Positions 5,963-31,545 of a DNA stretch of 64,000 bases are shown in pieces. Made by a program: the position numbers and the translations under genes. The DNA is taken from assembly GCF_029227855.1 (NCBI RefSeq), contig NZ_CP074356.1. The stretch is one strand, 5' to 3'. Position 1 is the stretch's first letter. Every line of letters begins with the position of its first letter. Under the pieces are notes generated by a model, which ran no database searches, was not told the DNA's origin, and worked only from the letters and a program-made list of their open reading frames with translations. Origin of the DNA: Escherichia coli (GTDB lineage Bacteria > Pseudomonadota > Gammaproteobacteria > Enterobacterales > Enterobacteriaceae).

Positions 5963-7012
5963 TTATGCGATGACGCTTTGAATCACATAGTTAATCGCAC
6001 CACCACCAACAATCAGCCAGGCAAACAGTACCAGTGCCATCAGCAGAGGTTTCGCCCCGGCTTTTTTCAGTGCGCTGACGTGAGTGGTCAGACCCAGCGC
6101 CGCCATCGCCATTGCCAGCAGGAAGGTATCCAGCGTTACCAGCATGTTCACCACGCTCTGCGGTAACAGGTGGAACGAGTTAAAGATGGCAACTACGATG
6201 AACAAGATGGCAAACCACGGAATAGTGATTTTGCTTTTCTCGCCGCTGTTCGCCCCAGACAGCTGTTTAACACGCGCCGCCAGCAGGATGAGGAACGGAG
6301 CCAGCATCATCACGCGCAGCATTTTGGAAATAACTGCTGCGTTTTCTGCATCCGGGCTGATGGCATGACCTGCCGCCACCACCTGCGCCACTTCGTGCAC
6401 AGTAGAACCAATGTAGATACCGAAAGTTTCCGGACTAAACCATTGAGACATCAGCGGATATATCGCCGGGTAGAGGAAAATCGCCACGGTCCCGAAGATA
6501 ACAACGGTTGCAACAGCCACGGTTACTTTACTGGCTTCCGCTTTCACTACCGGCTCAGTCGCCAGTACCGCGGCAGCACCACAAATACTGCTACCGGCAC
6601 CGATCAACCAGCTGGTGTGCTTATCCAGACCAAACACTTTCTGCCCCAGGAAGCAAGCCAGCAGGAAGGTACTGGACAGCGTCAACACGTCAATGATGAT
6701 CCCACTGATACCGACATCGGCAATTTGCGAGAACGTCAGACGGAAGCCATAAAGAATGATACCCAGACGTAATAAATATTGCTTGGCAAACAGCACACCA
6801 CCGTCACAGCTTTTCCAGATGTGCGGATAGATGGTGTTGCCTAAAACCATCCCCAACAAGATTGCGAGGGTGAGGGCACTAAACCCGGCACCCGCAACCG
6901 CGGGAATGGAACCACCCCACAGGGCGACCCCGGTGATAACTGCACTCAGGGCTAACCCCGGAATAAAATGCCACAGTGTACGATGTTGTTTCTGTAAGGT
7001 GATATTCGTCAT
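5963..7012 (-). CDS. yeiH: UPF0324 inner membrane protein YeiH
   Basis: 349 aa polytopic membrane protein; divergent from LysR regulator yeiE. Confidence 0.85.
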
Positions 7013-26157: not shown

Positions 26158-27105
26158 ATGCGTGTGTTACTGGCACCGATGGAGGGTGTACTCGACTCTC
26201 TGGTGCGTGAATTGCTGACCGAAGTTAACGACTACGATCTGTGCATCACCGAGTTTGTCCGCGTGGTGGATCAACTGCTGCCGGTAAAAGTCTTTCATCG
26301 CATTTGCCCTGAGCTACAAAACGCCAGCCGGACACCATCCGGTACGCTGGTGCGCGTGCAGTTGTTAGGTCAGTTCCCACAATGGCTGGCAGAGAATGCC
26401 GCCCGTGCGGTCGAGTTAGGTTCCTGGGGCGTGGATCTCAATTGCGGCTGCCCGTCGAAAACGGTTAACGGTAGCGGCGGTGGGGCGACGTTACTCAAAG
26501 ATCCTGAACTCATCTATCAGGGTGCAAAAGCGATGCGTGAAGCTGTACCGGCGCATTTGCCCGTCAGCGTGAAAGTGCGTCTGGGCTGGGACAGCGGTGA
26601 GAAGAAATTTGAAATCGCCGATGCGGTGCAACAGGCTGGCGCTACGGAGCTGGTAGTACATGGGCGGACAAAAGAGCAGGGTTACCGCGCGGAGCATATT
26701 GACTGGCAGGCGATTGGCGAGATTCGCCAGCGGCTGAATATTCCGGTGATTGCCAACGGTGAAATTTGGGACTGGCAGAGCGCGCAACAATGCATGGCGA
26801 TCAGCGGCTGTGACGCAGTGATGATTGGTCGCGGGGCGCTCAATATTCCCAACCTGAGCCGGGTGGTAAAATATAACGAACCGCGAATGCCGTGGCCGGA
26901 GGTGGTTGCTTTGCTGCAAAAATATACCCGTCTGGAAAAGCAGGGCGATACCGGGTTATATCACGTAGCGCGGATTAAACAGTGGTTGAGTTATTTGCGT
27001 AAAGAATACGATGAAGCAACGGAATTATTTCAGCATGTTCGGGTGTTGAATAATTCCCATGATATTGCAAGGGCTATTCAGGCAATTGATATCGAGAAAC
27101 TCTAA
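26158..27105 (+). CDS. dusC: tRNA-dihydrouridine synthase C
   Basis: ORF 26092..27105 trimmed to [11 protein letters not shown].. (Dus family TIM barrel). Confidence 0.9.
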
Positions 27106-27257
27106 GAAACCATAGTGATGTTTTTTGACAATGTGTTAGCTCTTTATCAATAGGCCGCACGGTTGTTTGGTGGCGTCAAAATCGCCGAGGCGTTCCCTGA
27201 AGGCCGGGGCAGCCCACATGGATGTGGGCTGAGGGCGCGTTTTACAGGGATAATGAG

Positions 27258-27268
27258 ATGGACGCTCC
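27258..27268. repeat. Left subterminal inverted repeat of IS element
   Basis: atggacgctcc; reverse complement recurs at 28623..28633 and, imperfectly, over the transposase RBS at 27326..27335. Confidence 0.5.
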
Positions 27269-27336
27269 AGATTTTACGGTATCAAAGTACCAGACTGGAT
27301 CGTTGCAATACGTCCTGAAAAATTAGGAGCGTCCAC

Positions 27337-28362
27337 ATGAAAGTATCAACTCTTGGTATCGACTTGGCAAAGAACGTTTTTCAGCTTCATGGTGTCGATC
27401 ATGAAGGCCATACTATTTTGCGTAAAAAGCTCACCCGGGCTAAGTTTGTTCAGTTTGTGATTCAACTGGAACCTTGTCTGATTGGCATGGAAGCCTGCTC
27501 ATCCAGTCATTATTTTGCGCGATTATTCACCCGCTATGGTCATGAGGTAAAACTCATACCTCCGCAGTATGTGAAGCCTTATGTGAAAACGAACAAGACG
27601 GATGCAGCAGATGCTGAAGCAATCTGCGAAGCGGTAACCCGTCCGAATATGCGTTTTGTTCAGATAAAAACCGAAGAGCAGCAGGCCGTTTTAGCGTTAC
27701 ACACTGAACGGGGAATACTTATCCGTGAGCGGATTGCCTGTGCCAATAGTTTAAGAGCCACACTTGCTGAGTTTGGTATTACGATTGCGGCCGGACAAAA
27801 CCATTTAACCCGTGAGCTGCCAGCCATTCTGGAGGATGGCGAAAATGGTTTATCTCCCTTTGTCAGAACCAGCATCTACAGACAGTCTAAACATATCCGG
27901 GAACTTGAAGAACAAGTTAAACAGGTAGAAGAAGCTCTGGCCTCCTGGTATAGAACGCAGGAAGCCTGCCAGAGAATGGCCAAGATCCCGGGGGTTGGCA
28001 TGCTAACGGCCACTTATGTGGTAGCAGCAGTGGGTAATGCCCGACAATTCAGTACCGCAAAGCAGTTCGCTTCATGGCTGGGGCTGACACCAAAGGAACA
28101 TTCCAGCGGCGGGAAACAGCAACTGGGAGGGATCAGCAAACGTGGAGATGGATATTTCCGATACCTGCTGGTTCACGGCGCACGCGCACTTACCGCCTGG
28201 GTCAACCGAAACGGCGCGGTTGAGGAGAATTCCTGGCTTCAGGGACTCCTTGAGCGGAAGCACTACAATGTAGCTGTTGTCGCCATGGCGGCAAAAACAG
28301 CGAGGATCATGTGGTCAATATTGTCACACAATACTGAATATCAACCTCGGCAGCTCGCCTGA
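27337..28362 (+). CDS. IS110-family transposase/recombinase (DEDD RuvC-like N-domain plus C-terminal Ser domain)
   Basis: 341 aa; N-terminal GIDLAK, GMEACSS, DAADAEAI and C-terminal SSGG...GGISKRGD motifs typical of IS110/IS1111 transposases; resembles IS4321/IS5075 more than IS621. Confidence 0.9.
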   Translation: MKVSTLGIDLAKNVFQLHGVDHEGHTILRKKLTRAKFVQFVIQLEPCLIGMEACSSSHYFARLFTRYGHEVKLIPPQYVKPYVKTNKTDAADAEAICEAVTRPNMRFVQIKTEEQQAVLALHTERGILIRERIACANSLRATLAEFGITIAAGQNHLTRELPAILEDGENGLSPFVRTSIYRQSKHIRELEEQVKQVEEALASWYRTQEACQRMAKIPGVGMLTATYVVAAVGNARQFSTAKQFASWLGLTPKEHSSGGKQQLGGISKRGDGYFRYLLVHGARALTAWVNRNGAVEENSWLQGLLERKHYNVAVVAMAAKTARIMWSILSHNTEYQPRQLA

Positions 28363-28640
28363 CACAAGGTCAGTCAATCTGACGAGGTGCTGAAAAAAAG
28401 TTAACGTCCTGGTAGGTGCAAGTGACTTCAGAAGATGGCAAAACAGGTAAGACCGCAGGCAGGATACACCGAGAGGTAACAAGGGCAAGTTAGCCCGTAG
28501 AGGATGATTGGTACCTGCCTGGCGGATTTCATCATGGTTCGGGATAAAAATCCCATCAGAAACCGGATATATGGCTGCACCTACCCGTTTTATTACATAA
28601 CTGAAGAAAGCATTGCATTCCGGGAGCGTCCATATATGTT
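28363..28640 (+). ncRNA. Candidate IS-encoded guide (bridge/seek) RNA in right-end non-coding region
   Basis: IS1111-group elements encode their guide RNA downstream of the transposase; region has no ORF and several short stems (gtcagtcaatctgac); extent is guessed. Confidence 0.3.
28623..28633. repeat. Right subterminal inverted repeat of IS element
   Basis: ggagcgtccat, reverse complement of 27258..27268. Confidence 0.5.
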
Positions 28641-28863
28641 ACCTCGCGCCCGACCCGGTAGCCGTAAGGGATAAGCCGAGGGCACCGCGCAGCGGCGATT
28701 TTGTTCGCCAGAGCCCGGGGGGGCAGGGGGCGGCGGCGATTGGTCGCCCCCTGCGCGCTCCCTGCGCCAGTGATTATATGAAGCAATGCACATGACAGGA
28801 GCGCAACAGGATGAGAGACTGAAATATTCTCGTTATTTTCGGATCTGATGACATTAATTAATT

Positions 28864-28947
28864 TTAAAATATCATCTTAAATACGCCAGTCACCACCAGT
28901 AGCCCAATCAGGAAAATAATCAATACAGCCCAGAGTATAATTTTCAT
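28864..28947 (-). CDS. yohP: Small membrane protein YohP (27 aa)
   Basis: Minus-strand ORF MKIILWAVLIIFLIGLLVVTGVFKMIF, below the 60-aa cut-off of the ORF track. Confidence 0.7.
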   Translation of the reverse strand: MKIILWAVLIIFLIGLLVVTGVFKMIF

Positions 28948-29170
28948 TGGCGTTCCTTTATTTGTGAGTGCTGAATAAGTATAGGAAAAAACGAAGCCCT
29001 TTGCCGCTATCCATAAACGATTAAGATAAATCGGAAGATATCATTCACTTAGTGTATATTTTTCTGGATATGTCGTTTTATTGCCACTGATGTATTGCCA
29101 CGCGAAACTAAAAAATATATCGCAACACACGGTAATCTCCGCGCACCTTTTCTTACCTGATTATTCCCCC

Positions 29171-30607
29171 ATGAATCGTGATTTTTTTTATCCAGCCATC
29201 GCCTGTTTTCCGCTGTTACTGATGCTGACCGGGTGTGCGCCTATGCATGAAACCCGCCAGGCGTTAAGCCAGCAAACGCCCGCTGCACAAGTTGACACCG
29301 CATTACCCACGGCGCTGAAAAATGGTTGGCCAGACAGCCAATGGTGGCTGGAGTATCACGATAATCAACTCACTTCCTTAATTAATAACGCACTACAGAG
29401 CGCACCGGATATGCAGGTGGCTGAACAGCGCATTCAGCTGGCTGAAGCCCAGGCGAAGGCAATTGCCACTCAGGATGGTCCGCAGATCGACTTTTCTGCG
29501 GATATGGAGCGGCAAAAAATGTCTGCAGAAGGGTTAATGGGGCCGTTTGCTCTGAACGATCCTGCCGCAGGTACGACCGGTCCGTGGTACACCAACGGTA
29601 CTTTTGGCTTAACGGCGGGCTGGCATCTCGATATCTGGGGAAAGAATCGGGCGGAGGTTACTGCTCGCCTGGGTACGGTTAAAGCACGGGCGGCGGAACG
29701 CGAGCAAACCCGCCAATTGCTGGCTGGCAGCGTAGCCCGTCTGTACTGGGAGTGGCAAACCCAGGCGGCGTTAAACACTGTCTTACAGCAAATCGAAAAA
29801 GAGCAGAACACCATTATCGCCACCGATCGCCAGCTATATCAGAACGGGATTACTTCTTCAGTTGAAGGTGTGGAAACCGATATTAATGCCAGCAAAACCC
29901 GGCAGCAGCTCAACGATGTCGCGGGGAAAATGAAAATTATTGAGGCACGGTTAAATGCACTCACAAATCACCAGACAAAGGCATTGAAGCTTAATCCGGT
30001 CGCGTTGCCGAAAGTGGCAAGTCAGCTTCCTGATGAACTGGGGTACTCCTTACTGGCCCGGCGGGCAGATTTGCAGGCGGCGCACTGGTACGTTGAGTCA
30101 TCGTTAAGCACTATTGATGCGGCAAAAGCGGCATTTTATCCTGACATCAACCTGATGGCCTTCCTGCAACAGGATGCGTTGCACTTAAGCGATCTGTTCC
30201 GTCATTCCGCGCAGCAAATGGGCGTTACGGCAGGCCTGACGCTACCCATTTTCGATAGTGGTCGTCTTAACGCCAACCTCGATATCGCAAAAGCCGAAAG
30301 CAACTTGTCTATCGCCAGCTACAACAAAGCGGTGGTTGAAGCGGTGAATGACGTGGCGCGGGCAGCCAGTCAGGTTCAGACACTGGCGGAGAAAAACCAG
30401 CATCAGGCGCAAATTGAGCGCGATGCCTTGCGTGTAGTAGGTCTTGCGCAGGCGCGCTTTAACGCGGGCATCATTGCGGGTTCCCGCGTCAGCGAAGCCA
30501 GAATCCCCGCGCTGCGTGAGCGGGCCAATGGCCTGTTATTGCAAGGGCAGTGGCTGGATGCCTCCATTCAACTCACTGGTGCGTTGGGCGGGGGTTACAA
30601 ACGCTGA
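29171..30607 (+). CDS. mdtQ: Outer membrane efflux lipoprotein (OMF / NodT family) MdtQ, apparently intact
   Basis: ORF 29081..30607 trimmed to MNRDFFYP..; lipobox LTGC; two OEP-type repeats. Confidence 0.75.
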   Translation: MNRDFFYPAIACFPLLLMLTGCAPMHETRQALSQQTPAAQVDTALPTALKNGWPDSQWWLEYHDNQLTSLINNALQSAPDMQVAEQRIQLAEAQAKAIATQDGPQIDFSADMERQKMSAEGLMGPFALNDPAAGTTGPWYTNGTFGLTAGWHLDIWGKNRAEVTARLGTVKARAAEREQTRQLLAGSVARLYWEWQTQAALNTVLQQIEKEQNTIIATDRQLYQNGITSSVEGVETDINASKTRQQLNDVAGKMKIIEARLNALTNHQTKALKLNPVALPKVASQLPDELGYSLLARRADLQAAHWYVESSLSTIDAAKAAFYPDINLMAFLQQDALHLSDLFRHSAQQMGVTAGLTLPIFDSGRLNANLDIAKAESNLSIASYNKAVVEAVNDVARAASQVQTLAEKNQHQAQIERDALRVVGLAQARFNAGIIAGSRVSEARIPALRERANGLLLQGQWLDASIQLTGALGGGYKR

Positions 30608-30659
30608 TGATATGCGCCTTCTATACTTAACGTTTATTCAGCGTTAAGTGGAGAACTCG

Positions 30660-31421
30660 ATGGCACAGGTCGCGATTATTACCGCCTCCGATTCGGGGAT
30701 CGGCAAAGAGTGCGCGTTATTACTGGCGCAGCAGGGGTTTGATATTGGCATTACCTGGCACTCAGATGAATAAGGGGCAAAAGATACCGCGCGTGAGGTA
30801 GTTAGCCACGGCGTACGTGCGGAGATCGTGCAGCTGGATCTCGGCAATCTACCAGAAGGGGCACTGGCGCTGGAGAAACTCATTCAACGGCTGGGGCGTA
30901 TTGATGTGCTGGTGAATAATGCGGGCGCAATGACCAAAGCGCCGTTTCTTGATATGGCTTTCGATGAGTGGCGCAAGATTTTTACCGTTGATGTCGATGG
31001 TGCATTTTTATGCTCGCAAATTGCTGCCCGCCAGATGGTGAAACAAGGGCAGGGTGGTCGCATCATCAACATTACGTCGGTGCATGAACATACGCCGTTG
31101 CCGGATGCCAGCGCCTACACAGCCGCTAAACATGCGCTCGGCGGGTTAACCAAAGCGATGGCGCTGGAGCTGGTCAGGCATAAGATTTTGGTGAATGCGG
31201 TTGCACCTGGGGCGATCGCCACGCCAATGAACGGCATGGATGATGGCGACGTGAAGCCCGGCGCGGAGCCTTCGATTCCCTTGCGGCGTTTTGGCGCAAC
31301 GCATGAGATTGCCAGCCTGGTGGTGTGGCTTTGTTCGGAGGGCGCAAATTACACCACTGGGCAGTCGTTGATAGTGGATGGCGGCTTTATGCTGGCGAAT
31401 CCGCAGTTCAAGCCAGAATAG
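30660..31421 (+). pseudogene. yohF: Short-chain dehydrogenase YohF with in-frame ochre codon at codon 38
   Basis: ATG at 30660, Rossmann SDSGIGK motif, then TAA at 30771..30773; same frame continues as an SDR to 31421. Confidence 0.8.
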
Positions 31422-31459
31422 CGCAGTGAGGTGCGTGGTTATTTCAATGGGTAATATTT

Positions 31460-31545
31460 GGGTAGGCATGATAAGACGCACAAGCGTCGCATCAGGCATG
31501 GTGCACCGGATGTCGGATGCGGCGCGAACGCCTTATCCTAGGCAA
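31460..31545. repeat. Tandem REP elements
   Basis: gcatgataagacgca...gcgtcgcatcaggc and ccggatgtcggatgcggcgcgaacgccttatcc between yohF and yohD. Confidence 0.65.

Follow-up and report, generated by a model that had tools for sequence, protein, structure and literature searches.

The gene examined here, mdtQ (formerly yohG), which encodes a lipoprotein of the outer-membrane-factor (OMF) type, occupies positions 29171..30607 on the plus strand of the window, the whole 64,000-nucleotide stretch of Escherichia coli DNA that was analysed (contig NZ_CP074356.1). Its reading frame opens with an ATG at 29171, closes with a TGA at 30605-30607 and comprises 478 codons plus the stop, with zero internal stops in either the open reading frame list or the raw sequence, and the ORF, the family model NF008524, Pfam and RefSeq all support an intact coding sequence. 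The longest mechanical ORF over the gene begins at a TTG at 29081, while RefSeq in E. coli JNEC-KY178 begins the gene at the ATG of 29171, as does the NF008524 model. We found that the 2.7 kb mdtQ region is 100% identical to that of JNEC-KY178, a Japanese clinical isolate in which RefSeq also annotates an intact mdtQ, with all other genomes at or below 99.5%. The encoded protein scores 1018.3 bits against NCBIfam NF008524, the MdtQ equivalog model (cutoff 650), with residues 1-478 aligned on model positions 1-478 of 478, and for a 478-codon ORF such a match to a curated equivalog model is far above chance. MdtQ also passes TIGR01845, the NodT subfamily (TC 1.B.17; 271.9 bits, cutoff 210.05), and matches Pfam OEP (PF02321) at 104 bits in two stretches that represent two tandem repeats. 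Membership of the TolC family (TIGR01844) is failed by a wide interval (53.2 bits, cutoff 225), as is that of the MdtP family (NF007390; 351.7 bits, cutoff 597), and since this latter score lies below the MdtP cutoff, and mdtQ has neither an adaptor nor a FUSC gene next to it, we consider MdtQ a paralogue of MdtP and not an MdtP equivalog. The ORF, TIGR01845 and the two OEP repeats thus agree with the first-pass annotation of this DNA, which had described an uninterrupted 478-aa NodT/OMF-family lipoprotein with the lipobox LTGC.

The protein begins with MNRDFFYPAIACFPLLLMLTGC and is predicted to carry a lipoprotein signal peptide over amino acids 1-22 (29171..29236, plus strand), which we read from the sequence and from the alignment of orthologues. 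The lipobox L19-T20-G21-C22 is encoded at 29225-29236, with Cys22 at 29234-29236, and is preceded by R3 in the n-region and the hydrophobic core PAIACFPLLLML, with Ala at the +2 position. Both the lipobox and the sorting call are rule-based readings, in which cleavage would fall between MNRDFFYPAIACFPLLLMLTG and C-A, and in which the non-Asp residue at +2 fits sorting to the outer membrane. The lipobox Cys is kept in 9/9 aligned sequences and the APMH motif after it is invariant, whereas the orthologues have A, T or S at lipobox position -2. Compared with the E. coli MdtQ proteins of O157:H7 (Q8X659 / WP_001078131.1) and TUM14771 (WP_001078043.1) the window protein has 98-99% amino acid identity with 3-8 differences, all of them allelic; length, lipobox Cys, locus and neighbours are alike. 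Its two N-terminal differences from most E. coli, S5F and (at position -2 of the lipobox) A20T, are both common to TUM14771. The accession of the TUM14771 protein is an old one and is in wide use. At N262, R397 and I434 the window protein differs from that of TUM14771, with each of these residues occurring in other strains, and no residue of the window MdtQ was private among the 8-9 sequences compared. A defective start or signal peptide had been named beforehand as the kind of hidden damage that would undo the reading of an intact gene, and we looked for it and found none: K-12 has the same ATG and the same 90 nt 5' of it, Phe5 and Thr20 are shared with TUM14771, position -2 is naturally variable and nothing is private, and we therefore reject a cryptic lesion at either site.

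The genes within 8 kb of mdtQ are preA, preT, yeiS, sanA, cdd, yohK, yohJ, dusC, the transposase of an IS110-family element, yohP, mdtQ, yohF, yohD, yohC, pbpG, dld, bglX, osmF and yehY, the last two being part of a glycine betaine ABC transporter. By annotation, the 8 kb to each side of mdtQ contain no efflux pump or periplasmic adaptor gene, which bears out the earlier observation that mdtQ has neither beside it. The gene sits at the orthologous place between yohP/dusC and yohF/yohD in K-12, O157:H7, other E. coli, Salmonella and Citrobacter. In fact the order dusC-(yohP)-mdtQ-(yohF)-yohD-yohC-pbpG-dld-bglX is common to K-12, Salmonella and Citrobacter, with yohF missing from the Citrobacter locus and no pump gene present in either Salmonella or Citrobacter, and this shared order argues that the stand-alone mdtQ predates the split of these genera. 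Moreover, a 60%-identical MdtQ homologue on a short metagenomic contig has an SDR gene directly downstream. The downstream neighbour in the window, yohF (30660..31421, plus strand), begins 52 bp after mdtQ and encodes an SDR-family oxidoreductase, here a pseudogene: codon 38 is GAA (Glu) in K-12 and TAA in the window (30771-30773), and RefSeq records an ‘internal stop’, in keeping with the first-pass description of yohF as the inactivated gene of the pair. The 90-nt context of this stop has an exact match in 1/5426 genomes, that of JNEC-KY178, which marks the mutation as private and recent, and because yohF lies downstream of mdtQ its loss cannot affect mdtQ.

On the upstream side the divergent gene yohP, which encodes a small membrane protein (28864..28947, minus strand, RefSeq annotation), leaves a 223-bp spacer that should contain the mdtQ promoter, a promoter described as being without experimental confirmation (PMC11762307). 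Our promoter and terminator scan near mdtQ gave 2 promoter-like matches where 2.4 were expected from shuffled sequences, and none rose above expectation; likewise no Shine-Dalgarno-like motif was found within 40 nt of the mdtQ start in E. coli, Salmonella or Citrobacter, and an Rfam scan of 27000-31500 matched zero families. As the Shine-Dalgarno-like motif is also absent from Salmonella and Citrobacter, this is a property of mdtQ and not of the window strain, and together with the lack of a promoter above background it suggests that expression of mdtQ may be low or conditional. Evidence of expression comes from relatives: YohG was detected in an outer-membrane and exoprotein proteome study of Klebsiella pneumoniae ST258 (PMC4404324), and yohG of Salmonella Enteritidis went up by 1.6 log2 under hypochlorite (PMC9065344). 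Further upstream, an IS110-family insertion sequence (27252..28635, plus strand; transposase ORF 27337-28362) is inserted between dusC and yohP, with breakpoints placed by BLAST against the K-12 and TUM14771 intergenic regions. Some 535 bp separate the element from the mdtQ start; it is not part of the gene, is present in 179/5426 genomes and is the sole structural difference from K-12 in the upstream region. The yohF stop codon and this insertion are the only strain-specific features of the locus, and they are strain markers.

In K-12 MG1655 the locus and its neighbours are alike, with the differences that K-12 has an intact yohF, has no upstream IS110-family element and has lost one base from mdtQ. 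The K-12 gene (b2139) is an annotated pseudogene of 1436 bp, as the first-pass annotation had it, and was at one time annotated as two ORFs; an intact K-12 copy, which would have refuted that annotation, is thus not what was found. Pairwise alignment with MG1655, the check that had been proposed, located the lesion in a homopolymer at codons K50-N51, which is A5 in the window (29318..29322, plus strand) and A4 in K-12; the K-12 copy is thus broken by a 1-bp deletion in the A-run that shifts the frame at codons 50-51, after which it reads ...TALKMVGQTANGGWSITIINSLP and stops 20 codons later. When the missing A is restored, the K-12 product differs from window MdtQ at 8/478 residues. The 1-bp deletion behind the K-12 pseudogene is a derived change that, judging by the genomes listed, does not extend beyond the laboratory lineage of K-12.

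A homopolymer is a classic site of sequencing error, and the difference between the intact and broken genes could on that account be put down to a sequencing or assembly artefact (A5 read as A4 or the reverse). The distribution of the two alleles is nevertheless consistent by strain: a 90-nt probe with the A5 context has exact matches in 3046/5411 E. coli genomes and the equivalent K-12 probe with A4 in 355/5411, the A4 genomes among the matches listed are apparently all K-12 or laboratory derivatives (60/60; for example MG1655, DH5alpha, C600, J53, DH1, NCM3722 and AG100), and the pseudogene is annotated in the curated MG1655 reference. With each allele recurring in so many independent assemblies we regard an artefact as effectively refuted. 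A different objection is that mdtQ, although intact in sequence, is a silent or decaying relic that is rarely or never expressed, has no working pump and is heading for loss. The absence of a Shine-Dalgarno-like motif and of a promoter above background would fit this, as would a published description of MdtQ function as not elucidated (PMC11762307) and the several independent inactivating lesions seen in E. coli and also in Salmonella Typhi and Paratyphi A. In a sample of 60 genomes drawn at regular intervals from the ranked matches of the whole-gene search, strain A8 lacks one base near the 3' end, a deletion that lengthens the coding sequence to 491 aa, and in strain STEC379 the 5' 864 bp of the gene are missing beside an IS1; strain 99COLEC has an independent 73-bp deletion, and some isolates of Typhi and Paratyphi A carry independent yohG truncations (PMC9241588). 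That inactivations recur in K-12, 99COLEC, STEC379 and some Typhi and Paratyphi A isolates indicates that loss of mdtQ is tolerated. Against a relic, however, the mdtQ match spans exactly 1437 bp in 54/60 of the sampled genomes, with a 1436-bp span in 4/60 that are all K-12 or laboratory strains, and RefSeq annotates an intact 478-aa MdtQ in TUM14771, O157:H7 PV15-279, RS571 and DETEC-S589. Intact orthologues of 478-479 aa, encoded alone there as well, are found in E. albertii (94% identity), Salmonella (81%) and Citrobacter (~80%), so that the intact frame is ancestral, and in the latter two genera length and synteny are kept at 80-81% amino acid identity. Distinct E. coli lineages give pairwise dN/dS values of 0.065-0.134 (a value of 0.23 was obtained against the near-identical TUM14771, a pair that differs at only seven sites), and values of about 0.07-0.13 indicate that mdtQ is under purifying selection. 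Adding the identification of the protein in Klebsiella and the induction of its transcript in Salmonella, we think it improbable that mdtQ is a relic; sporadic lesions in some strains and expression in relatives fit a gene that is of use under certain conditions and whose loss carries no penalty in some niches.

Taking these comparisons together, the feature in the window is very probably an ordinary allele of functional length of a core E. coli gene, and the original finding is correct but ordinary. The significance that had been implied for an intact orphan mdtQ does not hold up, for intactness is both the usual and the ancestral state, and the orphan position is common to at least Salmonella and Citrobacter; the usual intactness of the gene and its shared orphan position have already been stated (PMC11762307). 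That mdtQ is broken in K-12 and intact elsewhere is likewise already known, and the contrast concerns K-12 and not the window strain.

How an outer-membrane component encoded by itself might act can be framed by analogy with its family. After Lol-dependent sorting MdtQ would be expected to form a trimer that builds a TolC-like beta-barrel and alpha-barrel exit duct, and this duct would engage the periplasmic adaptor of a pump in the inner membrane whose genes lie elsewhere in the genome, as is the case with tolC. TolC has known partner pumps, and is a non-lipoprotein of another OMF subfamily (TIGR01844) whose BLASTP score to MdtQ is ~22 bits, essentially no similarity. The closest E. coli paralogue is instead MdtP (35% identity, 265-270 bits), the outer component of the FUSC/ArAE-type tripartite pump ytcA-mdtNOP; both proteins are NodT-subfamily lipoproteins, with MdtP encoded together with its adaptor and pump and MdtQ encoded alone. 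Among solved structures the nearest is VceC of Vibrio cholerae (PDB 1yc9), the OMF of the MFS-type VceCAB system, at 137 bits (E = 7.5e-39 over MdtQ residues 51-477), ahead of OprM at 83 and CusC at 78; here too VceC is encoded with its pump whereas MdtQ is not, and the similarity between the two is distant. Against the family models MdtQ scores 352 bits for MdtP, 122 for AdeK, 94 for CusC and 53 for TolC.

We also surveyed the neighbourhoods of the closest full-length, non-orthologous relatives of MdtQ in a 50%-identity representative library, in which identity falls from 60% to 41% or less. Eight neighbourhoods and a ninth (P0132) were collected and seven were informative, the contigs of P0126 and P0132 being too short to show a pump context. 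A FUSC-family pump gene lies directly upstream in five (P0125, P0127, P0128, P0129 and P0130), of which three show a full operon of YtcA, AaeA-type adaptor, FUSC and OMF, and the remaining two (P0131 and P0136) have MFS pumps as flanking neighbours, to which P0131 adds an EmrA-type adaptor. An RND pump was found beside close MdtQ relatives in 0/7 informative neighbourhoods. The FUSC-linked homologues are however nearer to MdtP (40-54%) than to MdtQ (35-39%), both by BLASTP and in a neighbour-joining tree, which weakens them as direct evidence for the MdtQ partner, and their neighbourhoods therefore provide a sister-group argument only. In the same tree, which is unbootstrapped, MdtQ groups with its 60% relative in a separate clade whose sister is that of MdtP, with the MFS-linked P0131 and P0136 placed near MdtQ, and the MdtQ clade is orphan in every context visible. 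From these analogies we would tentatively suggest that MdtQ may serve a non-RND pump of the FUSC/ArAE or MFS type with an AaeA- or EmrA-type adaptor. MdtQ could on the other hand be a back-up duct for RND pumps (AcrAB, AcrEF, MdtABC and others) that substitutes for TolC and is no partner of FUSC or MFS pumps at all. Promiscuity is a general trait of the OMF family, all four E. coli OMFs are classed as RND partners in some papers (PMC5615136), and MdtQ matches the RND-linked OprM, CusC, OprN and AdeK at E values of ~1e-20 to 1e-35, yet the MdtP and VceC scores (352 and 137 bits) stand far above those of any RND-linked OMF, and none of the seven informative neighbourhoods holds an RND pump, so that an RND back-up role seems to us very improbable.

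If the partner of MdtQ is indeed a non-RND pump, then the pump operons of E. coli that have no OMF gene of their own are the obvious candidates. Three FUSC-type operons are present in K-12, ytcA-mdtNOP with an OMF gene, and aaeXAB and ydhIJK without one, and AaeXAB functions in the efflux of aromatic carboxylates. It is conceivable, if rather unlikely, that the intact MdtQ is the missing exit duct for AaeXAB and/or YdhIJK. In a major review the outer-membrane partner of AaeAB is given as ‘?’ (PMC8277102), and in the literature we searched no link of MdtQ to any pump was reported. AaeAB-dependent phenotypes do occur in MG1655, in which mdtQ is broken (PMC11481567), and since AaeAB works in that background MdtQ cannot be a strict requirement of this pump.

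The K-12 contrast has been documented before, both in the EcoGene and RefSeq pseudogene annotation and in PMC11762307, and has little consequence for the window. Its bearing is on how the gene can be studied: K-12 is a natural mdtQ mutant, and K-12 genetics thus cannot reveal the role of MdtQ. The background in which to seek its partner or substrates is either a wild strain whose mdtQ is intact or a K-12 strain in which the missing A has been restored. Were MdtQ to serve AaeXAB or YdhIJK, such a link would have stayed hidden because nearly all efflux genetics has used K-12, with its frameshift at codon 50 of mdtQ, and wild E. coli would possess a complete tripartite exporter of aromatic acids or xenobiotics that K-12 does without.

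Taken outside K-12, mdtQ carries several independent lesions that are distinct from that of K-12. In strain A8 (locus L021, 1501-2976), a 1-bp deletion close to the 3' end yields a 491-aa CDS with no pseudogene flag, 99COLEC (locus L005, 2396-3759) has an internal 73-bp deletion at gene positions 173-245, and in STEC379 (locus L022, 3248-4573) the 5' 864 bp are deleted in association with IS1.

At its 5' end the window's copy of mdtQ has a T8 homopolymer (window 29182-29189, codons 4-7), which arose through the S5F substitution (TCC to TTT) in the window's lineage and is potentially slippage-prone. Most E. coli are without this tract, as K-12 and O157 have TTCCTTTT at this site. Directly 5' of the ATG we observe a pyrimidine-rich tract, which reads TTATTCCCCC-ATG in E. 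coli, CACCTCC-ATG in Salmonella and TATCTCC-ATG in Citrobacter; no Shine-Dalgarno-like motif was found upstream of the start codon, either in window 29131-29170 or upstream of position 6001 in the Salmonella (L008) and Citrobacter (L010) loci.

Further upstream, the dusC-yohP intergenic region, where a 2024 paper located a TRIP1c repeat, is occupied by an IS110-family element of 1384 bp (window 27252-28635) that begins 146 bp after the dusC stop codon. It encodes a 341-aa transposase annotated as 'RNA-guided transposase' (window 27337-28362) and directed towards yohP and mdtQ, and its non-coding ends are unequal, with 273 bp at the 3' end versus 85 bp at the 5' end. An Rfam search of window 27000-31500 returned zero families for the region of the element. 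K-12 and TUM14771, the closest relative, both lack the element, which is found in 179 of 5426 genomes, with three copies in JNEC-KY178.

On the other side of dusC, we observed that in O157:H7 (L004 1-591), Salmonella (L008 1-4495) and Citrobacter (L010 1-3874) the immediate upstream neighbour of this gene is a 3-hydroxybenzoate/gentisate catabolic cluster, in the place taken by yohJK in the window and in K-12. In Salmonella and Citrobacter the cluster comprises genes for an MFS transporter, an FAA hydrolase, a GST-type isomerase and a 3-hydroxybenzoate 6-monooxygenase, with a cupin dioxygenase gene in addition in Salmonella; the portion of the O157:H7 cluster in view covers the monooxygenase gene only. 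This arrangement puts an aromatic-acid catabolic island about 1.5 kb or less from mdtQ in some lineages.

Downstream, yohF is interrupted at codon 38 by a GAA to TAA nonsense mutation (window 30771-30773) that is private to the window's strain: its 90-nt context has an exact match in just one of 5426 complete E. coli genomes. All other strains inspected have an uninterrupted yohF. A passage in PMC11762307, citing Sulavik et al. 2001, reports hypersusceptibility of mdtQ/yohG null mutants to puromycin, acriflavine and tetraphenylarsonium. Should the strain of Sulavik et al. 2001 have been K-12, mdtQ of the parent was already frameshifted at codon 50, and the null phenotype would then need another explanation, for example polarity on yohF.
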